Virus record (IMG/VR): IMGVR_UViG_3300029220_000234 | Span: 1-64,000 of that record | Source: a virus | Strand: one strand, 5' to 3' | Length of the DNA: 64,000 bases | In this document: positions 5,548 to 51,359 of the stretch, one piece after another | Layout: every line of letters starts with the position of its first letter | Numbering within the stretch: the stretch's first letter is position 1 | Program-made: the position numbers and the translations under genes | Notes under the pieces: model-generated | Database searches by the model: none | What the model saw: only the letters and a program-made list of their open reading frames with translations | Told to the model about the DNA's origin: nothing

Positions 5548-5892
5548 ATGAGAAACAAAAACCTGACCGCTGCCGCTGCCATGGCAACCGCCACAGCCCT
5601 GATGCTTGCCGGATGTGCTACTCAGAAGCCTGCCGCTTCCTCGTCCGAAGCAGCTTCTACCGCCCCGGCTGAAAGTTCTGTGGTTGAGGAGACTACGCCG
5701 GAGGAAGCGCCTTCCGAGGTTACTGATGTAGACGAAGCTGCTGCGGAGGACCTGCTGTTGAGCACCGAAACGATGCACTACAGCGCTGATGATGAAGATG
5801 GCGTTGTTACCGTCCATAAGTACGATGAGAACGGCAATGAGGTTTTCATGCGTGAAATCGACAAAGCAAGTGATGTCAACAACCCCGCCTAA
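5548..5892 (+). CDS. Small secreted lipoprotein
   Basis: The RBS AAGGAGAA precedes MRNKNLTAAAAMATATALMLAGC (signal peptide with LAGC lipobox). Acidic S/T/E-rich mature part. The N-terminus in the ORF track is over-extended. Confidence 0.6.
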   Translation: MRNKNLTAAAAMATATALMLAGCATQKPAASSSEAASTAPAESSVVEETTPEEAPSEVTDVDEAAAEDLLLSTETMHYSADDEDGVVTVHKYDENGNEVFMREIDKASDVNNPA

Positions 5893-6192
5893 ACCGGTTC
5901 GCCGGTTATAGACGGGGCTTGCGGGGCAACCTGTAAGCCCAGTTGATTAGCCTAAGCCCATTGCTCCGGCAGTGGGGAAAACTACGTTGTGTACTAATAA
6001 TATAGGCACCTTATCCATGCTCCACAAGTGGTGAGCTCTGCAGGCGTTTCGTTAAACATCTCCGAGGGGAGGAGAAGTGCGAGCGTCATGTCGAAAGGCT
6101 AAAACAGTGCATAACATTGGCGAAGTGGACCACAGGACGCAAGTCCTGACTTATAGTTTTATTACTATTTTACGAATGGAGAAACAAAAATT

Positions 6193-10556: not shown

Positions 10557-10675
10557 CTCAAAAGCGCGGTTTTGTCCGCGCAGCTGCTCCAAAAGACAGC
10601 CTCCACGCGGCGAGCAGCGGGCAACGGGAGACAGTCCCGGCAAATTGTCTTTGAGACGGAAGGAAGAAGTGCCCT

Positions 10676-12517: not shown

Positions 12518-14683
12518 ATGGCAAGAAGGAAAACAAACGACTTGGAAAATCAGATGTCGCTCATGGACATGATGGCATCGAAAAGCCCCGAATATACCGA
12601 AGAAGGCCCGGAAGAACTCTTGGACCCCGGCGAGGACATGGAGGACAGTGAAGGGCAGACGGATAAGCCCTTCAAACTCGTGGCGAACAAGACCACGAAG
12701 GCAAAGGCGAGCATCTCCACGCAGGCGTTGAGTGTTGTGAAGGCGGTATATGCTGATACGGTAGAAACGAATTGGGAAGAGTTGTTTGACGGGTTCGACA
12801 GACTCTATGCTATCACTTTTTCGTCCGGTATCGAGTTCGTGAATAAGGTCATCAACAAGTTCTCGTATGCGGAAGTCGTGTTCGGATGCGAGAAAATCAT
12901 CGCCAACGACATTGCTGCCATCATGTCGGTGCAAATCGACAGCGTGCAGCGGCTCGCTAAGTCTAAGTCGGCAGGGAACCTTGCGAACCGCCTCGATGAC
13001 GGGTCCTTGCAGCTGTATGTATCGCGAGACACGAAATCGCACGAGAAAATCTTTATCTTGGAGAGCGCTGACCATAAGCGTGTCCGAGTCATCACCGGCA
13101 GTGCGAATATGTCGGCATCGGCGTTTTGCGGCATTCAGCGAGAGAATATCGTCTGCTTCGATGACGAGGCGGCATTTTCGCATTACAAGGTTCTGTTCGA
13201 GACCTTCAAGGAGACCTGCTCCGACAATGTCTCCTATAAGGCAGTCGTGAACACCATGAACCAGGAAGATTATCTGAAAGAGAACATCAAAGAAGTGCCC
13301 GTCTTTCAGTCTATTGAAAAGCAGAAGCTTGTCTTTCTGGAACAGGCACAGCCTGAGGATGAGGTCGAATACGAGATAGCTGCCGATGTCAAGAAAATGC
13401 AGGAACTCGTCAAGCCAATCATGCCTAAGATGCCGGTACAGGCGAATCGTATTGTAGTGGCAGCGGAACCGATGCGCGTTTTCGGGAAACGATATACCGA
13501 GGTGCGGCGTGTGGCAGCTGAGGCAGTTAAGCAGCTCCCAAAATTACATATCGACTATGATGCCGGGACCATGACCTTCAACGACGAAAATATCGACCTC
13601 AATCCGAATCTCAGCGAGGTGGCAAAGAACATCGAGAGCATCCAGAAGTTCTTCTCAGGCATGGACTACTTTTACGGCGATGTCGAACAGGCCAAGAAGG
13701 ACTACTTCAAGTACATGACCTGGTATCTGGCTACTCCGTTCATGGCGTATCTGCGGTATTTCGCATCGAGGAACAACTACGATACGAAGCTGTTCCCGAT
13801 GTACGGCGTTATATACGGCGACTCAAACGGCGGCAAGACGACCTTTATAAAATTTCTTGTCAAACTCATGTGCGGTGAGACCGTTAAGATGAACACGACG
13901 GAGGATTTCACAGCCACAAGAATCGACGGCCTCAAACGAGTTTGTGAGGGACTGCCGCTGAACATCGACGACCTCGCCAAGACCCAGTTTCAGAACCATT
14001 CAGAACGGGTAATCAAGAACGATGAATGGGGTATCTCGGACAGGCTCGTGAACTATCCTGCTGTATCTATCACATCGAATAAAATTACCTCGCTGACAAA
14101 AGACCTCTCGAAACGTGCTATCATCTGTCGAATTGGTGCTAAAATCGACAACGAGCGCGGTGCCAAGAACTCGAAGCGTGTGAATGAGAGTATGTCGGAG
14201 CTGACAACCGCGTTCTATGGCGAATATGTCCGCCGAATGCTTGTTTGCATCGATGAGATGACGACGGAAATGCGTGAAAATGCGAATGGCAAGGAATACT
14301 TCCCGGATATCTTCCACGCTTCGTCTAGTGTCATTGCAGATATCTTCGAGGCATGCGGAATCGATTTGCCGGACTATGTGCGTATCCTGTACTATAACGA
14401 CTATATGGGTGATGAGAGCATTGGTCGTGCTGCAATTGAGAAAATCGAACTGGCATGGCAGGCTGACCCGAGCAAGTTCCGGGTCGATAAGAAGCAGAAC
14501 AGGCTCATTTACTCCTATCCGCCGGATGGACCGTGGTACGAACTGAAATACATTGCAGATGAGCTGCCGAACTCCCTCGAAGCAGAGATTTCTGGCGGCA
14601 ACCAGCTTATCATGAACTACGAGCAGGCACAGGAATTGTTCGGCATCAAGTTTCGGCGCTGGCTGGGCATCTTTAACCTCTAA
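12518..14683 (+). CDS. PLD-like (HxK..D..GSxN-type) domain fused to an SF3/P4-D5-type P-loop NTPase
   Basis: N-terminus ...HEKIFILESADHKRVRVITGSANMSASAF resembles a phospholipase-D-family nuclease motif. The C-terminus has the Walker A GDSNGGKTTFIKFL typical of primase/SF3 helicase C-terminal domains. 721 aa. Confidence 0.55.
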   Translation: MARRKTNDLENQMSLMDMMASKSPEYTEEGPEELLDPGEDMEDSEGQTDKPFKLVANKTTKAKASISTQALSVVKAVYADTVETNWEELFDGFDRLYAITFSSGIEFVNKVINKFSYAEVVFGCEKIIANDIAAIMSVQIDSVQRLAKSKSAGNLANRLDDGSLQLYVSRDTKSHEKIFILESADHKRVRVITGSANMSASAFCGIQRENIVCFDDEAAFSHYKVLFETFKETCSDNVSYKAVVNTMNQEDYLKENIKEVPVFQSIEKQKLVFLEQAQPEDEVEYEIAADVKKMQELVKPIMPKMPVQANRIVVAAEPMRVFGKRYTEVRRVAAEAVKQLPKLHIDYDAGTMTFNDENIDLNPNLSEVAKNIESIQKFFSGMDYFYGDVEQAKKDYFKYMTWYLATPFMAYLRYFASRNNYDTKLFPMYGVIYGDSNGGKTTFIKFLVKLMCGETVKMNTTEDFTATRIDGLKRVCEGLPLNIDDLAKTQFQNHSERVIKNDEWGISDRLVNYPAVSITSNKITSLTKDLSKRAIICRIGAKIDNERGAKNSKRVNESMSELTTAFYGEYVRRMLVCIDEMTTEMRENANGKEYFPDIFHASSSVIADIFEACGIDLPDYVRILYYNDYMGDESIGRAAIEKIELAWQADPSKFRVDKKQNRLIYSYPPDGPWYELKYIADELPNSLEAEISGGNQLIMNYEQAQELFGIKFRRWLGIFNL

Positions 14684-14845: not shown

Positions 14846-15313
14846 ATGAAAGACTACGGCAACGGCTATTCCATTGAGGAGCTTGCCGCAAAATACAGGT
14901 TGAGCGTCCGTACATGCTATCGAGCGTTAGACGACGCGAAACAGGAGGCCAGAATTCAGTTGGCGCAGGTAGAGGATGCTAGAAAGGCCGAAATTCTTGC
15001 GGCATACAAGAACAGTGTCCCTCTCAAGGAAATGATTGCGAAATTTAACGTGGCAGAAGGATATTGCAGCATGGTTGCCAACGATGCGGGCCTGACTGAA
15101 AACCGTAGAAATGAGCGCATCAAAATTCGGCAAAAACCCCGCAATGAGAATATCTTTCGAGAATACGAGAGTGGCGTGCCGGTGCAGAAACTATCCGAAA
15201 AATATCAGCTCTCGGTTCCTGGTATTTACAAGGTTATCCAGCGAGTGAGAAGGCAAAAGGAGGCGATGAGTCTTGCAATGGATTGTGAAGCAAACCAAAT
15301 CGAAAGGATATGA
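14846..15313 (+). CDS. DNA-binding protein with three tandem HTH repeats (NUMOD1 / sigma-region-4-like)
   Basis: Three copies of a roughly 50-aa unit (YSIEELAAKYRLSVRTCYRAL, VPLKEMIAKFNVAEGYCSMV, VPVQKLSEKYQLSVPGIYKVI). They resemble the HTH repeats in the C-terminal half of the GIY-YIG enzyme at 26171. The start is uncertain because the in-frame AAGGAG is far upstream. Confidence 0.5.
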   Translation: MKDYGNGYSIEELAAKYRLSVRTCYRALDDAKQEARIQLAQVEDARKAEILAAYKNSVPLKEMIAKFNVAEGYCSMVANDAGLTENRRNERIKIRQKPRNENIFREYESGVPVQKLSEKYQLSVPGIYKVIQRVRRQKEAMSLAMDCEANQIERI

Positions 15314-17620: not shown

Positions 17621-18175
17621 GATGATATCATCAGCAAAATAGGGAATCGCATCATCGACTGGTGCTGCGATAACGATATTGATACTATTATCATTGGCCA
17701 CAATACCCGCTGGAAGCAAAACGCTAACATGGGCAAAAAGAACAATCAGACCTTTACGCAGCTTCCGCTGTATAAGCTGATTGAAAATATCACCTATCGC
17801 GCCGAATGGTGCGGCATCCGCGTTATCGAGCGTGAGGAATCTTACACTTCAAAAGCCTCCTTTTTGGACAATGATGCTATTCCTACATACGGTGAGGCCA
17901 AAGAACCTACATTCAGCGGCAGGCGCATCAAGCGCGGCTTGTATAAAGCAGCTGACGGCACCATCATCAACGCTGACTTGAACGGCAGCGCCAATATTCT
18001 GCGGAAAGAGTTTCCTGACGCTTTTGCGTCTCGCCAACCGGATTTTAGCAGTGTGGTAATTATTCGCCATCCCGATTTAGAGAGCATCAAACGCAATCGT
18101 GAAAAGCAGCTTGCCAAACCGAAAGGTATCAGGAAGTCAAAAATCAAGCGTTTGAAAGCAAAAGGCAAAATGTAA
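17621..18175 (+). pseudogene. Truncated TnpB-like (IS200/IS605 OrfB) remnant: RuvC-II to C-terminus only, with RuvC-II Glu replaced
   Basis: The in-frame ORF opens at 17621 after a stop codon and reads ...IIDWCCDNDIDTIIIGHNTRWKQ...QLPLYKLIENITYRAEWCGIRVIEREESYTSKASFLD...INADLNGSANILRK. It is colinear with the C-terminal half of the TnpB at 49649, but the expected E of RuvC-II is G. There is no RuvC-I and no CxxC Zn finger. Confidence 0.6.
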
Positions 18176-23693: not shown

Positions 23694-25580
23694 TCACTGA
23701 ACAACCTCGCCAAGGTCGTTTGCATATTTCGGGTCACACATCATGAAGTAGTTGACGGGGCCGTACTCCAGACCGAGCTCCTGCGCGTATGCCTTGATGG
23801 CTTCCAGGACGTCCTCTTTCTTGAGGCCAAACTTGGAATGCAGACGGGCAAACTCTTTGTCAGAGACAGAAACGCAAGAGCAATTTTCTGCATCGGTTTC
23901 TTTGCTGCCCAGCATCCCGTCAAAGATGTCCTGTCCTGCACAGAGAATCGTCTCATTGTTCATCACATAGGCGATAACGGAAGCCTTACAGTCAAAGTCG
24001 CTGTCTTCCACAAGGAAATCCTCAGGGCGGCCGTGACGTTCAACAACGTTTTCATAGATGTCCCGGAGTTCGATAGGAGCAGAAGGAGCGGTCAGCGCTG
24101 CTTTATGAAGGCGCATGAATTCCACGAACTTTTCATCCGAGAGGGTATCGGTATAAAAGCCGATGCCGGAAACGCGAACCTTCACTTCGCTGGCAAAGTA
24201 ATCGTCAATTTTGGAGACGATTTTCTGCTGGACCCGCTTGTATGCTTCCTGAACATTGGAAGCCGTGTAAAATACCGGAAACTTCATGATGTCGATTTCC
24301 TCCGGCAGACTCGCGTCATAGGCCGCATCAATGCCGCCTCGCAGCGCCGGAACCGCGTCATGCAGCTCTTTCACAGAAGAAATGTATCCGGTAATGTACA
24401 GCTCATCGTTTTTGCTGTAATGCCCGATAAGTCCCACATAGAGGGTCTGCATCAGCATCCGCTTGAAGCTGAACCAGCAAAGTCGAATAGGAAGAATGAC
24501 GTTTGCGGCCGAACCTTCCGCGTGATAGTTGCTGGGTGCAGAGACCTTTTCCAGCAGAATCTGGCCGTTCTTGTCACCGTATTTTTCCTTGAAAAGAGCT
24601 TGAAGAATTTCAGTGGACGAAAGAGGAGTGGACATTGGAATCGTTTCATTCAGAAAAGAGAGGAATGCATCCACGTTGTCTTTCTGCCATGCGTCATCAG
24701 ACATGCTTGCACGCTGCATAGAGAGCTTGTCTTTCCCGTCGTCAGGCAAGGGCTCATACCCACAGGCGATACGAAGCTCGTTCTCCGTGACAGCATCCGT
24801 TGCGCTTGCAATTTTCTTGAGGGTGTTTTCGGTCGGCTGAGCTTTTGCGTTGCCATTCACGAGGCTGCTGATATACCCACGAGTCAGTCCTGCCTGAAAC
24901 GCAAACTTACCCTGTGTTCGGGTTCCGATGGCTTTTTTGACCAGCGATGCCAGCCTTTGAAAGTCGGGCTCTTTGGGAAAGGTGGCCTCCGTATCCTTAT
25001 TGCTGTTCTTTTCAAGTACCGACTTGTCCCAACCGGTGACAAGAGAATACCCAATATCCTTCAAGGATTGGTAGGCAACCCCGTTCTGGTCAAGAGCCGG
25101 GGAGAATGTACCGCTGTTATCTTCCAGCTGCTCTACTGCCTCACGCACCATCCTTGCTTCGTTCATCAGGATGACGTCCGGGGCTTCAAGCCGGGCAAGA
25201 CTCTTGTACCGACTATTGAGGCGCTCGACTCGTGCGGCCAATGCAGTGATGTTGGCAACTTGGCCCTTCGTTGCATGGGCAGAGATATCTGCACCAAGTT
25301 CAAAATGGTTCAGTGCAGGAATATCCACGCTTTTGCTCTTGGCGAATTCCACAATGGCTTCCGCGCCATAGAAACGCTTCTCATGGGCTGCGACAACTTT
25401 CGTTATCGTGTCGGCCGAGTTGTCCAGCTCAAGCACTTCACCTTTTCCGGCATCCTCGACATAACACCTGGCGTTGGTGAGAAAGCCTTTCAAAAAATCA
25501 GCATCCACATCCAGCTTCTTAGCGATGCCGGGCAGCTGCTTATAGAAAATCACGGGTGTGGCGAGGTTAACAGAAATCAT
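23694..25580 (-). CDS. Large protein with a central XRE-type HTH
   Basis: The only long minus-strand gene in the phage core. TQGKFAFQAGLTRGYISSLVNGN is a canonical HTH_3 motif. The gene is divergent from the GIY-YIG cluster promoter repeats. Confidence 0.6.
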   Translation of the reverse strand: MISVNLATPVIFYKQLPGIAKKLDVDADFLKGFLTNARCYVEDAGKGEVLELDNSADTITKVVAAHEKRFYGAEAIVEFAKSKSVDIPALNHFELGADISAHATKGQVANITALAARVERLNSRYKSLARLEAPDVILMNEARMVREAVEQLEDNSGTFSPALDQNGVAYQSLKDIGYSLVTGWDKSVLEKNSNKDTEATFPKEPDFQRLASLVKKAIGTRTQGKFAFQAGLTRGYISSLVNGNAKAQPTENTLKKIASATDAVTENELRIACGYEPLPDDGKDKLSMQRASMSDDAWQKDNVDAFLSFLNETIPMSTPLSSTEILQALFKEKYGDKNGQILLEKVSAPSNYHAEGSAANVILPIRLCWFSFKRMLMQTLYVGLIGHYSKNDELYITGYISSVKELHDAVPALRGGIDAAYDASLPEEIDIMKFPVFYTASNVQEAYKRVQQKIVSKIDDYFASEVKVRVSGIGFYTDTLSDEKFVEFMRLHKAALTAPSAPIELRDIYENVVERHGRPEDFLVEDSDFDCKASVIAYVMNNETILCAGQDIFDGMLGSKETDAENCSCVSVSDKEFARLHSKFGLKKEDVLEAIKAYAQELGLEYGPVNYFMMCDPKYANDLGEVVQ

Positions 25581-25794
25581 GGTGTACTCCTTTCAAATAT
25601 GTCATTAGGTGTACAATGCTGTCATCTTCTGTAATTATAATAGCACATCCCGCACCAAAAAGCAAGCAAGAATTTACAATAAATGACAAGAAAATACACG
25701 AGATGACATATTTGAGTGTGACGGCTGATTTTTGAGTCTTTCCTGTTCAGCAGCGGAACAAGCCTTGTGCGTCTTGTCTATGCCATGACTTTGC

Positions 25795-26165
25795 CACTGT
25801 TTTGCCACAGTTTTGCCTTGTGCATCCGTGCAAATTGAATATTATTGTAAATATAGGATGAATCAGTGTGAGCTGCAGAGATTAGGAATTCTGCGGCTCT
25901 TTCTTATGTGGCCCCTAAAAGTCGTGATAAATGCACGCGTGCGTTCTAAAAATGTGTGCGTGCGTTTTTTGTGTATTTTCACGCATTTATCGCTCGTTAT
26001 TTGTGTGGGGTAGTGTTTTGCCATAATTTTGCCTTGTGCATCCGTGCGAATTAAATATGATAAGAAATATAAGATAAATAAGTGTGAGCCGTAGAGATTG
26101 AGTTTCTGCGGCTCCTTTCTTTTGTGGTCCCCATGCGGATGAAAATGTCTGCGTGGGGTTTTTTT
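25795..26165 (+). repeat. Two tandem roughly 210-bp units, each with TTTGCC(A/T) direct repeats, a phage-type promoter and a hairpin
   Basis: Unit 1 spans about 25795-26010 and unit 2 about 26015-26165. They share TTTTGCCTTGTGCATCCGTGC(A/G)AATT...AATA...AGTGTGAGC.G.AGAGATT....TCTGCGGCTC. The second unit ends in CCCCATGCGG...CTGCGTGGGG followed by TTTTTTTT, directly before the GIY-YIG start. Confidence 0.6.
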
Positions 26166-26170
26166 TAATT

Positions 26171-27361
26171 ATGGAATACTTGTATAAGCAATATAACAAC
26201 GAACCCGGGAAAGCTCCGACAGGAGAAAAATATATATACGTTATTACTGAAATAGAAACAGGAAAAATGTATATAGGACAAACCAGTAATTTCCACGCTC
26301 GTATGCGTTCGCATAGAACCTGCAAGTGCAACCAACATAGCGCAATTGATAGAGCTATTCAAGAAAAAGGTGCGGACGCATTCCAATATGAGATTTTAGA
26401 GTTGTGTGCTGCTGATGACGCTGATAGCAGAGAACGATATTGGATAGAAAAATCCGATTCTTGCAATGAACAAAAAGGTTTCAATACGTTTAAGGGCGGC
26501 CAAAAGAGTTTTTCAGATGAAAACTACTCTATGCTTGTAGAAATGCTTCAGCAAGGAATGACATTAAAGACTGCGTGTGACGCTATAAATACCTCTATTG
26601 CTTCTGCAAGGAGAGAATTGAAGAGGCGAGACACAAATTTGTCGGAAATCCGCTGTTCGGCAGCCGAACATAAATATCTGCGCCGCAAAAGCACTCTCGG
26701 AAAAGAAATCAATATAGCTGACGTACTGAAAATGTATCAAAATGGCATGTCATCGAAAGAAATAGCAGAGCACTATGGTATGAACTCATCCGCTTTTTAT
26801 CGCCGGTTAAAAGAAAATGGGTTGAGCGCCAGAGCAATTGCTCAGCCAAATTACGGAACAGCATCTGCTCTTTTCGACAAAGATAAAGCTATTGCAATGT
26901 GTAAAGACGGATATTCTGCCAGCGAGATAGGCGATGCTATGGGATTGCCGTATTACACAATAGAGAGGCTTCTTCGAAAGTCTGGATATTCTATATCATT
27001 GATTGCAGATGAAGAAGCAGCAGATAAAAGAAAGAAGCGAAACAAAAAACGAAGCCAAAATGGAAACTTCAATTTTGAAATGGCCGTTGATTTTTTAAGA
27101 GAAGGTTACAAGATACAAGCGATAGCTGATTTGATGGGCATATCAGATGCTCACCTAAGAACAAAGCTCAAACAAAACGGCTTTGATTTAGAAAAAACGC
27201 TTCCAATTATAGTCTGTGACGAAACGGGCGAAACGTTTCTTACAATGATAGAAGCGGCAAAAGCGTACAACGTAAGCTATACATCACTACGGAAATGTTT
27301 TGAAAAAAAGCAGGGTTACTGTGGCGGCTACCATTGGCACAAAGAAAAGCAGAATTTTTGA
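26171..27361 (+). CDS. GIY-YIG homing endonuclease with C-terminal NUMOD / HTH repeats
   Basis: The catalytic module is KYIYVITEIETGKMYIGQTSNFHARMRSH...RERYWIEK. Four HTH repeats follow (...MSSKEIAEHYGMNSSAFYRRLKENG and similar), with a C-terminal IENR-like motif. No SD is visible. The start is taken at MEYLYKQ. Confidence 0.8.
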   Translation: MEYLYKQYNNEPGKAPTGEKYIYVITEIETGKMYIGQTSNFHARMRSHRTCKCNQHSAIDRAIQEKGADAFQYEILELCAADDADSRERYWIEKSDSCNEQKGFNTFKGGQKSFSDENYSMLVEMLQQGMTLKTACDAINTSIASARRELKRRDTNLSEIRCSAAEHKYLRRKSTLGKEINIADVLKMYQNGMSSKEIAEHYGMNSSAFYRRLKENGLSARAIAQPNYGTASALFDKDKAIAMCKDGYSASEIGDAMGLPYYTIERLLRKSGYSISLIADEEAADKRKKRNKKRSQNGNFNFEMAVDFLREGYKIQAIADLMGISDAHLRTKLKQNGFDLEKTLPIIVCDETGETFLTMIEAAKAYNVSYTSLRKCFEKKQGYCGGYHWHKEKQNF

Positions 27362-27408
27362 CTCCAATGCAAAATACAGCATCGGATTTTTTATTGGGAG
27401 ATATAGAC

Positions 27409-28395
27409 ATGGCAAAGAATGAGAATCTGCACAAGGCAAAGGACGCGAAGAACGACGAGTTTTATACCAGAATCGAGGATGTTGCAGAGGAACTACGGCA
27501 CTACAAAAAGCATTTCGCGGGCAAGGTCGTATTCTGCAACTGCGATGACCCGACATGGTCCGCTTTCTGGCGGTATTTCCACCTGAACTTTGCAGAACTT
27601 GGCTTAAAGAAGCTGATTTCCACGCACTACGACCGTACAGAACCCACCTATAAAATGGAGTACGAGGGCGGAGATGACAACAATGTAGAAGTCGGAGTCA
27701 AGACTCCGCTGGAAGGCAACGGTGATTTCCGGAACAAAGAATGCCTTGACCTGCTGGATGAGTGCGACACCGTAGTCACAAATCCTCCATTCAGCTTAGC
27801 TAGAGCCTATGTCCAGTATCTACGTGAGCACAATAAGCAATTCGTTATTATTGGGGACCTCAACTGGATTACATACAAAGAAATTTTCCCGATGCTGAAA
27901 GATAATGAAATCTGGCTGGGATATTCTTCTGTAAAAGAGTTCACGCAACCTGACGGGACAATCAAGAAGTTCGGGAATAAATTGTGGTATACCAACCTCG
28001 ACATCCAGAAACGTCACGAGAAGCTGATTCTCTGGCAGCGGTACTATGACGATGACGGGAATCCGCTGCCGGATGCAGAGGAGCGCTACCCCCACTATGA
28101 TAACTACGACGCTATCAACGTGGATAGGGTCGCCGATATTCCGATGGATTATCAAGGTGTAATGGGTGTGCCGATTACATTCTTGAATGGTTACAATCCG
28201 GAGCAGTTTGAAATTGTGGAGTTAAGTAGATATCTTAACCATGAAGGAATGTCTAAGAAATTCGTTGAAACGTATTACAAACAAGGCGGAAAAGGCCAAA
28301 TTAAAGAAGGTCATCCAGACCTTTGCTATTATGATGACAAAGGTAAAGCAATCGTTCCATACATGCGAGTCCTTATAAAGAAAACAATTGCTTGA
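27409..28395 (+). CDS. Putative DNA N6-adenine (or N4-cytosine) methyltransferase
   Basis: TNPPF catalytic motif IV. Start at MAKNENL after a GGGAG RBS. Adjacent to the homing endonuclease. Confidence 0.55.
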   Translation: MAKNENLHKAKDAKNDEFYTRIEDVAEELRHYKKHFAGKVVFCNCDDPTWSAFWRYFHLNFAELGLKKLISTHYDRTEPTYKMEYEGGDDNNVEVGVKTPLEGNGDFRNKECLDLLDECDTVVTNPPFSLARAYVQYLREHNKQFVIIGDLNWITYKEIFPMLKDNEIWLGYSSVKEFTQPDGTIKKFGNKLWYTNLDIQKRHEKLILWQRYYDDDGNPLPDAEERYPHYDNYDAINVDRVADIPMDYQGVMGVPITFLNGYNPEQFEIVELSRYLNHEGMSKKFVETYYKQGGKGQIKEGHPDLCYYDDKGKAIVPYMRVLIKKTIA

Positions 28396-28448
28396 AATTG
28401 AATGTAATGTGCTTATTCTTTTTGTAAATAATGAGAGGAGAAAAAGCA

Positions 28449-29231
28449 ATGAAACTGATTGAATATCCCACGATGAACGCGGATATGTATTCACGCGTTA
28501 CATCAAATTATTCGTACTCTCCTTTTGAGTGTGTTACAACACCGTGGAGAAGCTATCCAAGCACACCTATTAAAGTACCTCATCCCGATACATGTCCATG
28601 CTGCAATAAAGTAATGTCGGATGATTTGAGCCCGGTAATGGCAATTAACAACATCAACATCGGAGAAGAAAAATACGAAAAATGCAAAGTAGTATCAGTT
28701 TATAGATGTGCATCGTGTAATTCGCTATTTGCAATTTGGAGTGAACATAAAGCAATCGAGCAAGACGAAACAACATTGGAAAATTTATCATATACATGCA
28801 AAATACTTGCCATGTTTCCTTTTGAAAAAGTTACAGTATTTACTCAAAACATTACCAATTTGTCTGCGGAATTTGTATCTGTATTTAATCAAACTGAAAT
28901 CGCAGAAGCGCAAAATTTGAATGATATTTGTGGTATGGGGTACAGGAGAGCATTAGAGTTTTTGGTGGATGCTTACATACGGAAAAATAGACCCGCAGAA
29001 ACCATTGATGCGAGCCTCCCTCTCAGCAAAAAAATACGCGATTATATCGATAACGAGCAAATTAAAACATTAGCACAAAAATCGGCGTGGCTTGGAAATG
29101 ATGCTACGCACATTGTAAACAATCATCCAGATAGAAGTGTAAAAGATGTCAAAAAATTTATAAAAGCTATAACAGCAATAATTGATGCCGAATTTGCTTG
29201 TGAAGACGCAAGTACCATAGAAAGGAATTGA
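28449..29231 (+). CDS. Cys-rich N-terminal domain plus a DUF4145-like C-terminal domain
   Basis: Start after GAGAGGAGAAAAAGCA. C-terminus ...ICGMGYRRALEFLVDAYI...AWLGNDATH resembles DUF4145, a domain common in defence-associated proteins. Confidence 0.45.
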   Translation: MKLIEYPTMNADMYSRVTSNYSYSPFECVTTPWRSYPSTPIKVPHPDTCPCCNKVMSDDLSPVMAINNINIGEEKYEKCKVVSVYRCASCNSLFAIWSEHKAIEQDETTLENLSYTCKILAMFPFEKVTVFTQNITNLSAEFVSVFNQTEIAEAQNLNDICGMGYRRALEFLVDAYIRKNRPAETIDASLPLSKKIRDYIDNEQIKTLAQKSAWLGNDATHIVNNHPDRSVKDVKKFIKAITAIIDAEFACEDASTIERN

Positions 29232-29237
29232 ACAACA

Positions 29238-30374
29238 ATGAAAATCACAGAAACGAAAATCAAGGTATCTGACCTTGTCGAGAACTACAAGGACAATGGT
29301 GATGGCGGAGTCTTTGGCTACAACGACCGCCTTACGATTCGCCCGTCTTTCCAGCGCGAGTTCATTTATGGAGAAAAACAGCGTGCAGCCGTCATCGATT
29401 CCGTAATGAACGGATTCCCTCTGAACGTCATGTACTGGTCTAAGACCGGGACTGACACATACGAGGTTCTTGATGGGCAGCAGCGTACCGTCTCTATTGC
29501 TCAGTACATCAACAAGGATTTTCCTATCAAAATCAATGGCAACGATAAGTTCTTCCAAAACTTGACCAACGAGGAAAAGCAGACAATTCTGGACTATGAA
29601 CTGACGGTTTATGTCTGCGAAGGTACTGAGGCAGAGAAGCTGGAATGGTTTAAGCGCATCAACATCGCTGGTGAAGTTCTGACTCCGCAGGAACTGCTGA
29701 ATGCTACTTATACAGGACCGTGGCTGGCCGATGCCAAGAACTACTTCTCGAAACGCAACTGTGTTGCTGCGAAGATGGCTGACGGATACCTGAAAGGCAA
29801 CCCGATTCGGCAGGAGTTGCTGGAAAAGGCACTGGCGTGGATTGCTGACCGTGACGGTCTGGAATCCGGGCAGATGTACATGGCGGTTCACCAGCATGAC
29901 GAGGACGCCAATGACCTCTGGCTTTACTTCCAGTCTGTCATCAACTGGGCGAAGATGTTGTTCCCGACGAAGCGGAAGGGAATTACTGATACGCAAGCAT
30001 GGGGTTTGCTCTATAACCAGTATCATACTAAGCAGTACAACAGCAACGCTCTGGAAGCTGATATCAAGAAACTCGTGCTGGATGATGATGTAACCAAGAA
30101 GGCAGGCATCATCCCGTTCATCCTCTCTGACCGTACTTGGCGTGACGAAAAGCATTTGTCCCTGCGTGCGTTTACCGAGTCTCAGAAGCTCCGTGCCTAC
30201 GAGCGGCAGGGTCACAAGTGTCCGCTGTGCGTTGCGAACGGCATCAACACCGAGTATGCCTATGAGGATATGGAAGGTGACCACATCATTCCTTGGAGCA
30301 AGGGCGGACATACCACGGATGACAATTTGCAGATGCTGTGCAAGAAGTGCAATTCGGCGAAGGCGGATAAGTAA
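29238..30374 (+). CDS. DUF262 (ParB/GmrSD-N-like, DGQQR motif) fused to an HNH endonuclease
   Basis: N-terminal FQREFIY...VLDGQQRTVSI. C-terminal CPLC...GDHIIPWSKGGHTTDDNLQMLCKKCNSAK HNH motif. Confidence 0.75.
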   Translation: MKITETKIKVSDLVENYKDNGDGGVFGYNDRLTIRPSFQREFIYGEKQRAAVIDSVMNGFPLNVMYWSKTGTDTYEVLDGQQRTVSIAQYINKDFPIKINGNDKFFQNLTNEEKQTILDYELTVYVCEGTEAEKLEWFKRINIAGEVLTPQELLNATYTGPWLADAKNYFSKRNCVAAKMADGYLKGNPIRQELLEKALAWIADRDGLESGQMYMAVHQHDEDANDLWLYFQSVINWAKMLFPTKRKGITDTQAWGLLYNQYHTKQYNSNALEADIKKLVLDDDVTKKAGIIPFILSDRTWRDEKHLSLRAFTESQKLRAYERQGHKCPLCVANGINTEYAYEDMEGDHIIPWSKGGHTTDDNLQMLCKKCNSAKADK

Positions 30375-30393: not shown

Positions 30394-30855
30394 ATGAAAT
30401 ATCGCTATTTTATGTGCGGCATGTTCACTGGCACAGATGGAAACAGATACGGCATCAGCATCCCGTCTCCGTTCGTGAGAGATTCAGAATCGGAAGCGAT
30501 GAAAGACGAGGTTTTTGGCTATCGGTTCCTGACCATCGATTCGGCAGAGCCTCTGCTGGTCGTCTTTGCAAACGAGCACTTTGAGCCCATGAACAACGAC
30601 AAAATGCAGGTAAGATGCTGGGTAGACAAGAACGTTGTCGGGATTTATACCTTTGAAGAATTCAAAAAAAATGGCGGGTATATTCGACAACTGAAGCCGA
30701 GCAGCAGGGGAAAGTATGTAACTGATGAATCTGACTTTGTTGATGTTGACAAGTCGTTTGCTGATATATTCCCAAACATGGAAAGGCGCAAACTGTGTTA
30801 TATTGACGATGAAGCATACAAGATTAGCGAGGTAGAAGACAATGCTCAATACTAA
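30394..30855 (+). CDS. Hypothetical protein
   Basis: RBS GGGAGGATGTG-ATG. 153 aa. Confidence 0.45.
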   Translation: MKYRYFMCGMFTGTDGNRYGISIPSPFVRDSESEAMKDEVFGYRFLTIDSAEPLLVVFANEHFEPMNNDKMQVRCWVDKNVVGIYTFEEFKKNGGYIRQLKPSSRGKYVTDESDFVDVDKSFADIFPNMERRKLCYIDDEAYKISEVEDNAQY

Positions 30856-31309
30856 GAAAACCACACGCAAGAGCAATCACGGAAGTGAATCAACTTACTC
30901 CGGCTCTGTGACTGCCGTCACATCCAAGACTATTGTGGTCTTCATCCCGGCACTCGATGTCGAGGTGGATGTCCAGCGTAACCCCGACACATCCGCCCAG
31001 AACGGTTCTGTCCCCGAAGTGGGAGATATTGCTACTGTGCAGGTTACTCTCCGAGATGGTGACACTATTACCATTGCCGCCACCTTCGTACCGCAGCAAG
31101 ACATTGGTAAGGATACTTCAACCGATAACGACGATTTACTTTTACCGGATGACGATTGGAATGGCAACACAGCTCACACACAGCGACAATATAGCCACCA
31201 CGCAAACCGGCTCAATCCAAATAATAGTGCGTATACAGCTGCAATGAACAATCATGCAAACCAGTGCAATCCTAACAGCCCCAACTATCGTGGGAATCGA
31301 GGCAAATGA
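30842..31309 (+). CDS. Hypothetical protein with a C-terminal N.HANQ.NPN..NY repeat
   Basis: RBS GAGGTAGAAGACA-ATG. C-terminal Asn/His/Pro-rich tandem motif. Confidence 0.4.
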   Translation: MLNTKKTTRKSNHGSESTYSGSVTAVTSKTIVVFIPALDVEVDVQRNPDTSAQNGSVPEVGDIATVQVTLRDGDTITIAATFVPQQDIGKDTSTDNDDLLLPDDDWNGNTAHTQRQYSHHANRLNPNNSAYTAAMNNHANQCNPNSPNYRGNRGK

Positions 31310-31376: not shown

Positions 31377-31733
31377 ATGGTAGTTAAAGGAGAATCTTGT
31401 TTTGTTTCTATGAAATTGAGTATGAAATCCACTGATACTACGAGCGAAGGAATCATTATGCCGGATTTTCTTTGCTCTAGTGCAGACTTTTCACTTCCCT
31501 ACAATCCAGAGATTATCGACAAGTTTGTCTATGACGATAAACTAATTTCTCACATGATTCACGAATTGTATAGTCTCGTGAAGTGTCTTCGTCCTGATAA
31601 ATTGGACGGCAAAGAAAAATGTCTGGTGCTGGATATTGACGTTGATGATGAATTCTATGATTTCTATGATGTATACGTAACTATGAACAAAGACACTTGT
31701 ACCTACAGGGTCGAAGAAGATGATGACTGCTAA
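31377..31733 (+). CDS. Hypothetical acidic protein
   Basis: RBS GGAGGAAGCCCT-ATG. Confidence 0.4.
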   Translation: MVVKGESCFVSMKLSMKSTDTTSEGIIMPDFLCSSADFSLPYNPEIIDKFVYDDKLISHMIHELYSLVKCLRPDKLDGKEKCLVLDIDVDDEFYDFYDVYVTMNKDTCTYRVEEDDDC

Positions 31734-31921: not shown

Positions 31922-31955
31922 ATTGACCAGTCTTGCGAGCTGCGTAGAATTAAAA
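31922..31955 (+). promoter_or_regulatory. Phage-type promoter (TTGACC ... CTTGCGAGCTGCG ... TAGAATTA)
   Basis: Consensus-like. Upstream of the 31997 gene. Confidence 0.45.
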
Positions 31956-31996
31956 GTGCAAGAAGAAACCCAAAACACACAAAGGAGAATGCCAAC

Positions 31997-32317
31997 ATGT
32001 ACACTTGCACTTTGAAATTCGAAGCAACCGCGTTCCGCGAGGATGACGACAACGAGCTCGAAAGCATCTCTGCTTCCATCAGCGTCCCTGTAAAGGGCGA
32101 AGATGAAGATGTTGGAGAAGCACTTGGCAATGAAAAGCTGATTGTTCACGCCGTTGGAGCTCTGTATGACATCGTCAGCTACCTGCGCCCCAACTGGCTG
32201 GATAACGAAGATACCAGCCTGACTATCAAGGCATTCCTGGACGAAGCCGAGTGCCAGACGCTCAAGGGTCTTGTCGCAATGAAAGAGGGCGGCTATACCT
32301 TCATCCTTGAGGGCTAA
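31997..32317 (+). CDS. Small acidic hypothetical protein (GC3-rich)
   Basis: RBS AAAGGAGAATGCCAAC-ATG. Followed by a terminator. Confidence 0.45.
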   Translation: MYTCTLKFEATAFREDDDNELESISASISVPVKGEDEDVGEALGNEKLIVHAVGALYDIVSYLRPNWLDNEDTSLTIKAFLDEAECQTLKGLVAMKEGGYTFILEG

Positions 32318-32947: not shown

Positions 32948-33454
32948 GGCGACGGTGACACCGAAGACCTTGACCATCCGGTTCTCGTGCGCGTCCCTGA
33001 CTGCGTGCGTGCCGAAGGGGACAAGAGTCTCCGCAAGGTGTACTTCGACAAGGAAGTTGCGAGTGCAACTGGCTTCAACACGGAGGAAGACCAGTCCAAG
33101 CTCAACGCATCCACCGTGGATGAGTACACCCGCAGCATGAAGAAGTGATTCTTCATGTTTCCCTAAGCATTGCCTTTAAGCTTTGTTTCTAGCTGCAGTA
33201 TGAATCAAGGCTGAATTGGCCCGGCTTGAAAGTCGTTCACCTTTTGGTGAGCGGCTTTTTCTTTTTGCCTGTTTGCGTAGCTGCGCTTTTTTCGTCGCCG
33301 AAACCGTAGGTGGCGGGATGCGTAGCTGCCGACATGGCTTGACCTGATGTGCGAGACTCGTACAATCAGATTTGTACGACAGATATCAAACACAAAATAG
33401 GACAAAATAGGATTTACATTGAGCTGTTCAGTGGCCTTATGGCTGTTGGATAGC

Positions 33455-33488
33455 TTTTTCTTTTGTGCGAGTTGCGTACAATAAAAAC
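33455..33488 (+). promoter_or_regulatory. Phage-type promoter (TTTGTGCGAGTTGCG ... TACAATAA) now feeding into the IscB element
   Basis: Consensus match. The GGAGG at 33492-33496 was probably the original RBS of the lipoprotein gene at 35124. Confidence 0.5.
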
Positions 33489-33504
33489 AAACGGAGGAAA
33501 TTAC

Positions 33505-33810
33505 CGTCAATAACCCACGACTAAAGTCGCGGGCTTGCTCCGGCAAGTCCGCACTTTAGAAGTGTCCGCAAGGATATGTTGACTACCCTTTGCGCATTAA
33601 GTTGCGCCCCGTTATAAGCGAATAGACAGTTACCGTACGGTGTAAATCCTAGCCGTGCGCTCTAAGGCAACACATCACGTAAAGCTGAGGCAAAGCCGAC
33701 AGGTGTGGCTGCATCAAGCCGTTTATAACCTTGGGGAAGGATTTTAACCCTCTTCGGAGGAGCGAGCAGCTTCTTTTTAGCTGCTAATTTACAGAAAGGA
33801 GCATGGCATC
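33505..33810 (+). ncRNA. Putative IscB omega-RNA scaffold
   Basis: 306-nt non-coding, GC-rich, hairpin-dense region between the left end and the iscB RBS (CTTGC-TCCG-GCAAG, CTCTTCGGAG, AGCAGCTTCTTTTTAGCTGCT). This is the position where IscB omega-RNAs are encoded. Confidence 0.5.
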
Positions 33811-35073
33811 ATGCAATATGTGTATGTACTCAACAGGCACGGCGAGCCTATGATGCCGTGCTCACCCGGAAAGGCTCGTTTGCTATTAAAACAGCAAAAA
33901 GCATGCGTTGTAAAGCGCACACCGTTTACAATCAAGCTCCTGTGCGGAAGCGTGGGATACAAACAACCTATCACTTTGGGCGTTGACGCAGGCAGCAAGC
34001 ATGTTGGTTTGTCTGCATCTACCGAGAAGCGCGAACTCTACCGTGAGGAATTTACTCCTCGCAGCGATGTAGCAGAATTGCTTTCTACGCGCAAACAAAA
34101 CCGCCGTTCGAGACGCAACCGTAAGACCCGTTACCGCGCACCGAGATTTGATAATCGCGTCCATAGCAAGCATAAAGGTTGGCTGGCACCTTCGGTTGAG
34201 GTAAAAATTCAAGAGCATATTACCGTCATCAAGCATATCTGCAAAATTTTGCCTATCTCTCTTGTAAGAGTAGAAACAGCAGAGTTTGACACGCAGCGCT
34301 TGAAGGCAATGCTTGCTGGAAAGCCTCTTCCTGTAGGAACAGACTATCAGCTTGGCGAGATGTACGACGAATACAATGTCCGTCAGTATGTCTTGAAGCG
34401 TGACCATTACACTTGTCAATGCTGTGGTGCTCATAATACTGCCGAAAAAGTAGTCAAGCTGCATGTACATCATCTCGAAAGCCGTAAGACTGGCGGCAAC
34501 GCTCCAAGCAACCTTGTTACTTTGTGTACCACATGCCACAAGAACCTTCACAAAGGAAGAGTGACCCTTGACGGCAAGGAACGCGGCAAGCCTCTTCGTG
34601 ATGCTGCTTTCATGGGAATCATGCGCAAAACCTTAATGACACGTTTGAAAGAAGAGCTGCCTATCCCTGTTCAGAGGACTTATGGCTATATCACTAAAAT
34701 GCGCCGTGAGCAAAATGACATCAAGAAGAGTCATACAAACGATGCTCGCTGTATTAGCAAGCATCCACTGGCTGAGCCTTGCAGCGTTTGCTACCGTACA
34801 AAGGCTATCAGACACCATAATCGGCAAACCCATAAAGCAAATTTCTCTAAAGGTGGCTACCGGAAAAGAAGTCAAACACCTTATATCGTTGAAGGCTACC
34901 GCTTGTGGGACAAGGTTCTCTACAAAGGGCAAGAATGCTTTGTATCCGGCCGCCGCTCTTCGGGAAGTTTTGCACTTAAAAAGCTGGATGGTACGAGCAT
35001 CTCTAAAGGCGTGACATTCAAAAAGCTGCGACTTTTAGAGCCCGCAGCAAATTATTTAATTGAAAGGATGTGA
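33811..35073 (+). CDS. iscB: IscB (OMEGA RNA-guided nuclease; RuvC-HNH-RuvC with PLMP N-terminus)
   Basis: PLMP-type N-terminus HGEPMMPCSPGKARLLLKQQKA. RuvC-I ITLGVDAGSKHVGLS. Zn finger DHYTCQCCG. HNH HHLESRKTGGNAPSNLVTLCTTCHKNLH. Arg-rich bridge helix. 420 aa. Confidence 0.85.
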   Translation: MQYVYVLNRHGEPMMPCSPGKARLLLKQQKACVVKRTPFTIKLLCGSVGYKQPITLGVDAGSKHVGLSASTEKRELYREEFTPRSDVAELLSTRKQNRRSRRNRKTRYRAPRFDNRVHSKHKGWLAPSVEVKIQEHITVIKHICKILPISLVRVETAEFDTQRLKAMLAGKPLPVGTDYQLGEMYDEYNVRQYVLKRDHYTCQCCGAHNTAEKVVKLHVHHLESRKTGGNAPSNLVTLCTTCHKNLHKGRVTLDGKERGKPLRDAAFMGIMRKTLMTRLKEELPIPVQRTYGYITKMRREQNDIKKSHTNDARCISKHPLAEPCSVCYRTKAIRHHNRQTHKANFSKGGYRKRSQTPYIVEGYRLWDKVLYKGQECFVSGRRSSGSFALKKLDGTSISKGVTFKKLRLLEPAANYLIERM

Positions 35074-44194: not shown

Positions 44195-44340
44195 TTACTC
44201 GACAAGCTGTGCGAACTGACTACAATAAAAAATGTACGATAGATAACAAACATCGAAAAAGGCATTCTGCCTTTCGTACAATTCACAATTCTGCAGACAT
44301 AAGGCAGACTCACCGTCTTGGTGGGCCTGCCTTTTTTGTT
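44195..44340 (+). promoter_or_regulatory. Promoter-leader-terminator module A
   Basis: GTGCGAA(44209), TACAATAA(44221), GTACGATAGATA(44234), TCGTACAATTCACAATTCTGC(44274), hairpin AGGCAGACTCACCGTCTTGGTGGGCCTGCCT plus TTTTTTG, then the RBS. Confidence 0.6.
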
Positions 44341-51147: not shown

Positions 51148-51282
51148 GCTTGCTCAAACGTGCGATTTCACTAAAATTGTAATTGTACGATAGATAACAG
51201 CCTTTTGGCCTAAATGCGTACAATTCATATTCTGCAAAGAATCAGCAGACTCACCATCTCGGTGGGCCTGCTTTTTGTTTTG
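51148..51282 (+). promoter_or_regulatory. Promoter-leader-terminator module B
   Basis: CTTGCT...GTGCGAT...GTACGATAGATA(51185)...GCGTACAATTCATATTCTGC...hairpin AGCAGACTCACCATCTCGGTGGGCCTGCT plus TTTTTG. It is followed by a 6-codon mini-ORF (MKIIPN) before the real gene. Confidence 0.6.
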
Positions 51283-51359
51283 CAAGCAATAAAAGGAGTA
51301 ATGAAAATTATACCGAACTGAACAAAATCTAAAATCACACAACAAAAGGAGAAGTAATT

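Follow-up and report, generated by a model that had tools for sequence, protein, structure and literature searches.

A duplicated promoter-hairpin cassette at the entry of a variable nuclease and DNA-modification island in an uncultured gut phage

The PeSL cassettes of T4-type phages are repeated promoter-plus-stem-loop elements which mediate insertions and deletions, and their crossovers have been mapped either to the stem-loop or to the stretch from the -10 element to the ATG (PMC2839356, PMC4122927). We analysed positions 1 to 64,000 of the IMG/VR virus record IMGVR_UViG_3300029220_000234 (below, at its full length of 64,000 nucleotides, the window), in which two tandem promoter-hairpin units stand ahead of an island of nuclease and DNA-modification genes, and the PeSL cassettes appear to be the closest known analogue of these units. 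As in PeSL (Arbiol et al. 2010, PMC2839356; Comeau et al. 2014, PMC4122927), a composite sigma-70-like promoter is combined with a stem-loop terminator and the combination is repeated, the copies are clustered at non-essential variable genes and would supply the transcription signals of the cargo, and the breakpoints of insertions, deletions and replacements between close relatives fall within the cassette. The composite structure, the many copies (26 promoters and at least 11 leader terminators) and the breakpoints in cassettes, by which PeSL are recognised, were all found here; membership of the T4-like myoviruses was not, DNA and protein searches of 50,697 GenBank phage records having returned no relative. 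Unlike the PeSL of T4-like myoviruses, the present cassettes belong to an uncultured, Clostridiales-associated gut phage, have a GTGCGA spacer box and an 11-bp repeat array, and carry their putative terminator stem-loops in the leader downstream of the predicted start; they seem to act in a PeSL-like manner outside the described set. The window makes up about one third to one half of the genome of a large gut phage whose host is probably a member of the Clostridiales, although the search of genome collections gave a single match to a metagenome-assembled genome (MAG), of a Clostridiales bacterium, and this is only a hint of the host.

The reading which we favour, and to which we give slightly better than an even chance, is that promoter-terminator cassettes stand at the entry of a swappable defence island, that they attenuate its expression and serve as crossover points, and that their duplication in the window is a product of recombination. 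It is built on direct observations of the anatomy of the cassette, its promoter class, the energetics of its hairpins, the polymorphism of the locus with its breakpoints, and the linkage of the genes.

The duplicated cassette and its breakpoints among relatives

An earlier note on this DNA had described a unit of promoter and hairpins, duplicated in tandem between a divergently transcribed regulator gene and a gene for a GIY-YIG homing endonuclease. The duplication proved to be real: positions 25798-25883 match 26014-26099 with 85% identity over 86 nt at an offset of 216 bp, and the two units stay collinear further on (25889-25915 with 26104-26131, and 25949-25977 with 26142-26170), about 50 nt of unit 1 being missing from unit 2. 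A 21-mer from the core of the unit, TTTTGCCTTGTGCATCCGTGC, has exactly two occurrences in the window, where 0.01 would be expected. Both units lie inside the 590-bp gap which separates the minus-strand gene 23694-25580, encoding a 628-aa helix-turn-helix (HTH) protein, from the GIY-YIG ATG at 26171. The direct repeats that had been noticed at the units are also present, as a plus-strand 11-bp motif, (T/C)TTTGCCAYNN, with three good copies and a degenerate one in unit 1 (25778..25817) and two copies in unit 2 (26016..26033), the last copy abutting the -35 element. Searched for as TTTGCC-N5-TTTGCC, the motif was found in the gap three times exactly and once with one mismatch, and in the whole window seven times at up to one mismatch, where 0.57 would be expected.

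Downstream of the arrays, on the same strand, lie the predicted promoters P1 (25818..25845, TTGTGC-atcc-GTGCAAAT-tgaa-TATTAT) and P2 (26034..26061, TTGTGC-atcc-GTGCGAAT-taaa-TATGAT). The phage-type promoter which had been proposed for each unit can be kept as a prediction; it is not, however, particular to the island, the pattern TTG-N8-TGCGA-N6-TAnnAT with one mismatch allowed having 26 matches in the window versus 0.43 expected. All but one of these are on the plus strand, they are situated in intergenic gaps (further sites are, e.g., 5448, 14735, 19892, 37308, 49503 and 60285), and the unit promoter is therefore the phage's own three-part element and not an island-specific one. The layout of the class is a -35 TTGnnn, N4, a spacer box GTGCGA(A/G), N5 and a -10 TAnAAT, with the consensus TTGc..-a..t-GTGCGAAT-tg.a-TAnAAT; P1 is a member and P2 an exact match. 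When the TTG was not required, a search with GTGCGA-N6-[TG]AnAAT returned 14 sites, 12 of them with a TTG in register. Many promoters of the class stand directly behind the T run of a preceding terminator, and at no fewer than 11 of the 26 a terminator-like hairpin lies between promoter and gene, 50-100 nt downstream.

Four terminator-like hairpins were called in the gap, compared with 0.9 expected. In unit 1 these are hairpin 1 (25870-25899, with a U-rich tail to 25909) and, in the tail segment of the unit (25916..26010), a terminator-like hairpin (25929-25967) followed by a T run; in unit 2 they are hairpin 1 (26086-26114), whose tail CUUUCUUUUGU extends to 26125 and can pair with an A-rich tract upstream, and the intrinsic-terminator-like hairpin 2 (26129-26158), which is followed by a run of eight T (T8) to 26166, all on the plus strand. 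Terminator calling and folding agreed on both copies of hairpin 1 and on hairpin 2; the imperfect hairpin of each unit and the GC hairpin with T8 at the end of unit 2 were seen as the note had described them, as was the GIY-YIG ATG, 4 nt past the T8 and without a Shine-Dalgarno (SD) sequence. The predicted energy of hairpin 1 is -19.8 kcal/mol (z -5.6) and that of hairpin 2 is -21.1 kcal/mol (z -5.0), the unit-2 leader folded as a whole has a z of -6.6, and the cassette hairpins with U tracts range from -17.5 to -21 kcal/mol; the gap hairpins have the form expected of an intrinsic terminator, a GC-rich stem-loop directly before a U tract. We also considered hairpin 1 as a palindromic DNA operator and rejected this, since the length of its loop differs across relatives, which fits an RNA hairpin better than the binding site of a dimer. 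The units match no Rfam family, either at gathering thresholds over the whole window or at E up to 1 on 25500-26300, where the miRNA, RybB and c-di-GMP matches are at chance level only.

A search of IMG/VR with the 628-aa protein returned 30 loci, on contigs 10-188 kb in length, and the intergenic region is included in 26 of them; with L053/L054 and L060 added, 28 relatives could be read across it. Every one of the 28 carries a single unit, which does not bear out a designed tandem array, and the duplication is, as judged from these relatives, specific to this genome and a one-off scar. Three classes of locus were distinguished. When the units were aligned with relatives, the shared part was seen to stop at the hexamer TATGAT, TATTAT or TACAAT, 16 nt past TTGTGC. 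In the 13 loci of class B the repeat array and the part of the promoter that ends with the -10 lead directly into a leader and gene equivalent to window 31950-32317, and the whole segment 26.0-31.9 kb is absent. The gene in question, a conserved plus-strand gene of 106 aa (31997..32317, 62-73% identity), is the first past the promoter in the 13 island-less relatives. In the window it has its own class promoter at the right border of the island (31923..31950, plus strand, TTGACC-agtc-TTGCGAGC-tgcg-TAGAAT), and class B therefore looks like a crossover at the -10 between two promoters. In the three loci of class C, the promoter and hairpin 1 are followed by a remnant of about 220 nt of a zinc-ribbon (DUF4379-type) gene, by a segment equivalent to the unit-1 tail and then by a 622-aa DUF4379 protein and the methyltransferase; unit-1 positions 126-220 match L024, L032 and L044 at 80-82%, past the insert of about 220 nt with the gene remnant. 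Class A, consisting of ten viral-contig loci together with L053/L054 and L060, has the promoter and both hairpins, then an SD and varied cargo. The breakpoints thus lie inside the cassette, at the -10 (13 loci), past hairpin 1 (3 loci) or past hairpin 2 (10 loci plus L053/L054 and L060), and in most relatives the variable island begins directly past hairpin 2. Relatives share the leader at 90-94% identity, also those with wholly different cargo behind it, and from hairpin 2 to the SD of the gene that follows we found no promoter in any of them.

By comparison with these classes, unit 1 is class-C-like minus the remnant, unit 2 is class-A-like, and the tandem appears to be the junction of two island variants. 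Unit 1 would then represent the resident promoter and hairpin 1 with the terminator left from a lost zinc-ribbon gene, and unit 2 a second copy of promoter and leader, brought in with the GIY-YIG/methyltransferase cassette; we infer that recombination caused the duplication. A homologous cassette is also found in L059, which belongs to a MAG with the label Clostridiales bacterium and in which the homologue of the 628-aa protein has 40% identity. It has the promoter TTGCACATTCGTGCGAATTGGATACAAT, a transcript start similar to that of the window, hairpin 1 as AAGCCGCAGGG…CTCTGCGGCTT and hairpin 2 as CCCCGCGTGGA…TCTGCGCGGGG plus a T run. Between the two hairpins of L059 lies a hydrophobic open reading frame (ORF) of 39 codons, MRNRKKAQKAASLVMAVMMTLTLVLGTVVPVVLQTAAVF (about positions 437-560 of the intergenic region), which may encode a small membrane peptide or toxin lost in the lineage of the window. 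L062, the closest relative of L059 at the protein level, has a different divergent promoter, so the cassette looks mobile between lineages. The distant relatives L050, L051 and L061-L066 (40-56% identity) were tried as a test of the repeats and set aside: their divergent regions differ, the cassette being common only to L059.

On the reading that we favour, a cassette would comprise a variable 11-bp repeat array, a three-part promoter, a short leader with a -10-like start, and one or two terminator hairpins. Polymerase would initiate at the three-part promoter or promoters and most transcripts would end at hairpin 1 or 2, the terminator in the tail of unit 1 being a further possible end for those from P1; the remainder would read through and make up the island mRNA, whether the read-through is constitutive or depends on modification by a phage factor, perhaps antitermination. 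As the stretch from hairpin 2 to the first SD has nothing promoter-like in it, transcription must pass both hairpins, and the island would thus be attenuated, with its toxic nuclease and abortive-infection genes held low. Terminator function and control by read-through would follow from this anatomy. Because the cassettes are conserved and repeated, they would also act as crossover points: co-infecting relatives would exchange cargo through cassette homology, replacing everything downstream of the -10, of hairpin 1 or of hairpin 2, and the homing endonuclease would cut leaders which lack the homing endonuclease gene (HEG) and spread together with flanking sequence. If so, a widespread lineage of uncultured gut phages would be exchanging genes for restriction, abortive infection and homing endonucleases at a single defined site, with conserved promoter-terminator cassettes as the crossover points. 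This would extend the PeSL idea from T4-like coliphages to phages of gut Firmicutes, and metagenomes could be searched for phage-borne defence cargo by a concrete sequence signature. New objects would be the three-part promoter motif, the structured leader with a covarying terminator described below, an operon of methyltransferase, effector and DUF262-HNH nuclease with a swappable middle gene, and an HTH protein with a domain like the clamp helices of the RNA polymerase beta' subunit.

Several points weigh against this reading. Promoter activity, the start site and the efficiency of termination are all predictions. Among nine leader variants of close relatives the number of compensatory pairs in the hairpins is zero, the missing covariation in hairpins 1 and 2 being due to sequences that are too similar. 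What does speak for the hairpins is that all variation among the nine is confined to loops and tails, that three one-sided changes preserve pairing, and that some pair changes come from the more distant L024 class and L059, and only from these: in hairpin 1 a G-C pair is replaced by A-U in L024, L032, L044 and L059, and in hairpin 2 of L059 an A-U pair is replaced by G-C, along with two one-sided changes, pairing being kept. The 11-bp repeats occur at this promoter only within the window, and their role is not accounted for by the model. The left junction, where …TGTGTGGGG is joined to TAGTG TTTTGCC… (GTGGGG to TAGTG), falls within the repeat array and has no clear homology, so the event may have been illegitimate recombination and not guided by the cassette. 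In L059, moreover, the position of the small ORF between the hairpins means that hairpin 1 is not a full terminator there, and the two adjacent hairpins may be a 5'-untranslated-region hairpin and a terminator left from a lost small gene, not a designed gate.

The divergent HTH protein, antitermination and other readings of the cassette

Since the HTH gene and the island are divergent neighbours, an arrangement retained across relatives, the protein might instead bind the TTTGCC repeats as an operator or activator array and switch the island promoter or promoters, with the duplication doubling the control. This is what the earlier note had in mind, and we consider it unlikely. In its favour, the repeats are spaced at a helical period of 11 bp and reach right up to the -35, they are retained in lineages in which the protein is 83-97% identical and has the same recognition helix, and their number is 3-5 in island-bearing genomes versus 2-3 in island-less ones. 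Over the relatives, nine loci have two copies, five have three, 12 have four and one has five, those of L053 being four perfect TTTTGCCATGA repeats. However, genomes whose HTH proteins are near-identical range from 2 to 5 copies, the homologous promoter with hairpins in L059 and the same-class promoter in L050 have no repeats at all, and the duplication is absent in all relatives; the binding itself is predicted. Furthermore, XRE-type HTH dimers usually bind inverted repeats, and such repeats surround the protein's own promoter instead.

That promoter, read from the sequence on the minus strand, has a -35 TTGCTT (25665-25660), a 17-nt spacer and a TGn-extended -10 TATTAT (25642-25637), and it is flanked by four TGTCAT/ATGACA boxes at 25600, 25620, 25683 and 25703 (25600..25708), two on each side and arranged as inverted repeats. 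Four boxes in 125 bp compare with 0.1 expected, and we regard them as candidate autoregulatory operators. Boxes stand at the same place in diverged lineages, as TGTCTAAAG in L050, as TGTAAC/GTTACA in L051 and L063 and as TGTATCAT in L059 and L062, and their sequence shifts together with the protein, lineages with a different recognition helix having different boxes. An HTH_3 domain combined with inverted boxes at the protein's own promoter is what characterises an autoregulated XRE-type repressor, and both are present here, the binding being predicted only. The TGTCAT boxes are, on this pattern, better operator candidates for the 628-aa protein than the TTTGCC repeats, the core of which, TGCCA(T/C), is nevertheless one position away from the TGTCAT box, a likeness which speaks for the operator-array alternative. 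For the 11-bp repeats two readings are possible: they may be sites for a DNA-binding protein, or phased T tracts that form an upstream promoter element. An extracytoplasmic-function-type promoter GGAAC...CGTC upstream of the repeats was dropped because its spacing, 10 nt, is wrong.

A second alternative, which we also consider unlikely, is antitermination of the lambdoid PR'-Q type. In lambdoid phages the late promoter PR' combines a binding element for Q with a sigma-dependent proximal pause, and the terminator tR' follows about 190 nt downstream. By analogy, a factor would load onto polymerase paused at the -10-like start (TATAAGAT here, TGTACGATAGATA elsewhere) and make it resistant to hairpins 1 and 2, the island being silent until the factor appears. 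The order of -35, spacer box, -10, -10-like start, terminator and genes is the same in both; the differences are that there are many copies per genome here and one there, that the terminators lie 50-100 nt and not about 190 nt downstream, and that the matches listed for the window include no Q homologue. In favour of such a mechanism are the conserved spacer box at 26 promoters, the terminators at 11 or more of them and the conserved -10-like transcript start: TGTACGATAGATA begins 6-7 nt after the -10 at nine class promoters, and the island leader begins with TATAAGATAAATA, which agrees with it at 10 of 13 positions. Against it, many class promoters have no terminator ahead of the gene, the box may be an element for an activator or a modified sigma, and no Q-, N- or NusG/LoaP-like protein is among the Pfam matches listed for the 73 window ORFs scanned (for 63 of these ORFs, the list covers the 25 most frequent of 40 families).

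Seven of the nine TGTACGATAGATA promoters share a whole leader of about 100 nt, which also lends weight to antitermination. The members of this family (44233-44340, 51184-51283, 52890-52992, 55281-55385, 57614-57722, 60319-60420 and 61735-61838, all on the plus strand, with degenerate copies after 33366 on the plus and after 5343 on the minus strand) have in common a closing helix GUACGA/UCGUAC, the stretch AUUCACAAUUCUGC and a covarying terminator with six compensatory pairs, and a small hairpin, UCUGC/GCGGA, would form at the expense of the terminator stem. No Rfam family matches the leaders, which we regard as a candidate attenuator or antitermination RNA. Two candidate antitermination factors are encoded in the window, namely the 628-aa protein, through the beta'-like domain described below, and a Mor-family activator, a 155-aa plus-strand product of 14846-15313 with an N-terminal HTH_28 and a C-terminal Mor-family activator HTH (E 1.7e-12). 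The Mor-like protein is also a candidate factor for the phage promoter class as such.

The domain structure of the 628-aa protein (23694..25580, minus strand) suggests a further possibility. Residues 222-269 form an XRE-type HTH_3 (Pfam E 3e-6, 27.6 bits, cut-off 23), the C-terminal 350 aa or so are uncharacterised, and residues 108-176 resemble the clamp helices of beta'. For this segment NCBIfam rpoC models gave an E of 2.9e-7, a single-sequence search of the PDB matched beta' at E 2.9e-5, and the family profile matched 73 beta' chains in the PDB, the best at E 7e-10 with query residues 108-176 aligned to E. coli beta' 262-330. The AlphaFold2 model (predicted local distance difference test score 84) has a helical hairpin there (H105-130 and H135-153), and in Foldseek all 50 of the 50 best PDB matches are beta'. 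Seven residues of the aligned segment are invariant in the family, R124, L131, P134, N140, E141, E153 and N155, which, by offset from the alignment, would correspond to E. coli beta' R278, L285, P288, N294, E295, L307 and N309. Full-length homologues of about 620 aa and 39-89% identity are encoded on contigs of up to about 400 kb, and the cluster of the protein has 4,588 member sequences. We rejected the idea that the protein is a split RNA polymerase subunit: it has no conserved NADFDGD-like motif, and an 'SDFD' segment is not invariant.

It is mainly at the clamp helices of beta' that sigma region 2 and the N-domains of NusG and RfaH dock. As a lead, the beta'-like domain may be a decoy which captures sigma or a NusG-type elongation factor. 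In a search of the literature we met with no description of a phage protein that mimics the clamp helices. Taken to its end, this would make the 628-aa protein a new phage transcription factor, a DNA-bound copy of the clamp helices that captures host sigma-A or an elongation factor and so decides over initiation or read-through, an idea that we consider a long shot. The HTH would tether the protein both at the TGTCAT boxes and at the TG(C/T)CAY repeats beside the island promoter, and the number of repeats would tune the response; were it true, an undescribed genome-wide control circuit would include the GTGCGA box, the conserved TGTACGATAGATA leaders and the terminators.

It is very improbable that the units are small-RNA genes, producing an RNA of about 55 nt to hairpin 1 or about 95 nt to hairpin 2 that acts in trans, with the downstream genes expressed from elsewhere. 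A promoter, a single-stranded A/U-rich 5' end of 20 nt and a terminator hairpin are the typical layout of such a gene, and the leader keeps its high identity across relatives despite different cargo. In opposition to this, no relative has a promoter between hairpin 2 and the next SD from which the genes might be expressed, no Rfam family is matched, the hairpins of L059 flank a small ORF, and the 5' segment of the leader has no complementarity in the 64-kb window beyond the units themselves, on which ground the trans-acting RNA was rejected. Hardly credible, finally, is a replication origin with the repeats as iterons and an AT-rich stretch as the DNA-unwinding element, rejected in spite of direct repeats of helical period beside an AT-rich segment of about 45 bp, since that segment is the -10 and transcript start of a 26-copy promoter class and the cumulative GC skew climbs steadily with no turn near 25.8 kb, and weakened further by the small and variable number of repeats (2-5) and by the lack of an adjacent initiator gene.

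The homing endonuclease and the cargo of the island

The hypervariable accessory island occupies 26.0-31.9 kb of the window. Its GC content is 41.5-42.6% as compared with about 48% elsewhere, and it is missing in 13 of the 26 viral-contig relatives, which agrees with the description of a self-contained nuclease and modification island behind a promoter and terminator-like hairpins. The domain calls of the note were likewise confirmed (Pfam HTH_3, GIY-YIG with several HTHs, EcoRI_methylase, and GmrSD_N with HNH), DUF4145 being weak.

The first gene of the island encodes a free-standing GIY-YIG endonuclease of the I-TevI type (26171..27361, plus strand), with a Pfam GIY-YIG domain, several HTH modules and a match of 71 bits to NCBIfam TIGR01453 (group I intron endonuclease; cut-off 56). 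It is followed by a 3' hairpin with T6 (27362..27392, plus strand), which restores TTTTTTATTGGGAGATATAGACATG, the sequence that holds the SD of the methyltransferase. HEG-less alleles of the L027 type read GCGTGGGGATTTTTTATTTGGAGATATAGACATG, that is, hairpin 2, a T run, the SD and the start of the methyltransferase, and the GIY-YIG cassette of the window sits within the T run of such a junction. HEG-plus and HEG-less alleles have common flanks and differ by presence or absence at one intergenic site. In L030, L033 and L047, a GIY-YIG gene with 95% identical DNA stands ahead of an unrelated 687-aa N6_Mtase. The view of a homing endonuclease with its methyltransferase could not be upheld, given that HEG-less relatives join the leader directly to the methyltransferase and that the same GIY-YIG precedes an unrelated N6_Mtase elsewhere; it is thus not the partner of the methyltransferase and is, to judge from this distribution, an independent selfish element with the conserved leader as its apparent target. 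It resembles the GIY-YIG enzymes of T-even phages (I-TevI, Seg) in its catalytic domain with HTH modules, its intergenic position, its presence or absence at one site and its weak translation signals, and differs from them in that the gene is placed in the terminator T run of a 5' leader.

Behind it lies an M.EcoRI-family adenine methyltransferase (27409..28395, plus strand; Pfam EcoRI_methylase E 6e-105, PADLOC MTase_II E 6.5e-101), and further downstream the DUF262-HNH nuclease (29238..30374, plus strand), in which a ParB/DUF262 domain (GmrSD_N) is combined with a C-terminal HNH (PF01844, E 1.3e-13) and which matches PADLOC REase_II, a Type II restriction endonuclease model (PDLC03418), over its full length at E 9e-132. 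The nuclease had been called GmrSD-like, and this stands for the N-terminal DUF262 domain, which it shares with the Type IV GmrSD enzymes; it differs from these, however, in having HNH and not the C-terminal domain of GmrSD (DUF1524 has no Pfam match in the protein), in its tight linkage to a methyltransferase and in its full-length match to a Type II model. Methyltransferase and nuclease co-occur in L025, L027, L028, L032, L036, L044, L053 and L054, and also in three unrelated contigs, where they are adjacent (L056) or have one gene (L055) or three small genes (L058) between them, and the linkage is kept throughout L053-L058; over six independent contexts, the nuclease is consistently preceded by an EcoRI_methylase gene. 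The possibility that the two are unrelated selfish elements, which the earlier note had allowed for, is not what was found: they are linked, in unrelated contigs as well, and this kept linkage supports a restriction-modification-like pair. Adjacent methyltransferase and endonuclease genes of recognised families, the mark of a Type II restriction-modification system, are present, the nuclease is probably the restriction partner of the methyltransferase, and we infer a restriction-modification activity of the pair.

Between the two lies the gene of a zinc-ribbon DUF4145 protein (28431..29231, plus strand), with a Cys4-type zinc ribbon (CxxC pairs at about residues 55-58 and 93-96) and a DUF4145 that reaches Pfam E 2e-4, below the Pfam cut-off, over residues 166-240 and is better matched by PHROGs (phrog_1305, E 7.5e-32). 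In PADLOC, which the note had suggested for the pair of nuclease and DUF4145 protein, the former matched REase_II but the latter had no match to any model. DUF4145 is a divergent HEPN family, often tied to restriction systems (PMC3710099), and a zinc finger with DUF4145 is the architecture of the abortive-infection RNase RAZR (PMC13017515). The window protein shares with RAZR / PD-T7-4 an N-terminal zinc domain (here the Cys4-type ribbon), a C-terminal DUF4145 and a place among defence genes (PMC13017515), and differs in its lack of a PADLOC match and in its position in a restriction-modification-like operon on a phage; inspected by eye, it has no evident catalytic arginine in the spacing that R-x-H requires relative to the conserved histidine. 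The slot which it occupies would hold an effector of the abortive-infection type and is swappable, being filled with HEPN in L025, TIR in L044, TIR-like CAP12 in L053/L054 and proteins without recognised function in L027 and L028, and empty in L056. In L026, L030, L033, L047 and L060 a pair of an N6_Mtase and a specificity subunit is found as a replacement.

With the Type II systems and defence hotspots of phages the island has in common the order of methyltransferase then nuclease, both matching PADLOC Type II models, and a content that varies between near-identical genomes and includes Type I-like methyltransferase-plus-specificity-subunit pairs, TIR and HEPN; unlike in phage Type II systems, ParB/DUF262 is fused to HNH here and a third, swappable gene stands between the pair. 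The island ends in three small plus-strand ORFs (30394-30855, 30842-31309 and 31377-31733), which are patchy in relatives and match no family in Pfam, PADLOC, PHROGs or NCBIfam. Outside the island, there is a further restriction-like gene (12518-14683, plus strand), whose product is 721 aa long and has a PLD nuclease domain of the NgoFVII type. DUF4379 proteins with treble-clef zinc-finger repeats, of the kind seen in class C, are encoded at 1884-3470 on the minus strand of the window and at 948-2816 in L024/L044, and the large DUF4379 proteins are possibly selfish nuclease-like genes.

Other mobile and RNA elements of the window

A second case of tandem promoters was found at 33339-33810, where promoter 33339, a leader, a terminator, promoter 33455, a HEARO RNA and an IscB-type gene follow one another. 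Promoter 33455-33482 overlaps the T tail of the terminator that belongs to the promoter unit 33339-33456 and is predicted to drive the complete IscB-type element, which consists of the HEARO RNA (33506-33748, 79 bits, cut-off 83) and an RRXRR+HNH ORF (33811-35073), both on the plus strand. Tandem promoters ahead of a mobile nuclease therefore occur twice in the window.

Other elements lie further away, all on the plus strand of the window. A second HEARO RNA (5875-6135, 91 bits) has no neighbouring IscB gene, the next ORF (6193-7836) encoding an SPFH/flotillin protein. A hepatitis delta virus-like ribozyme of the F. prausnitzii type (10583-10652, 60 bits, cut-off 44) lies just past a VWA-domain gene (8862-10556). 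A TnpB/Cas12f-like fragment with a TNB domain and a transposase-like ORF are found at 17729-18175 and 49649-50980, and in L051 and L054 full OrfB_IS605 genes lie near the same locus.

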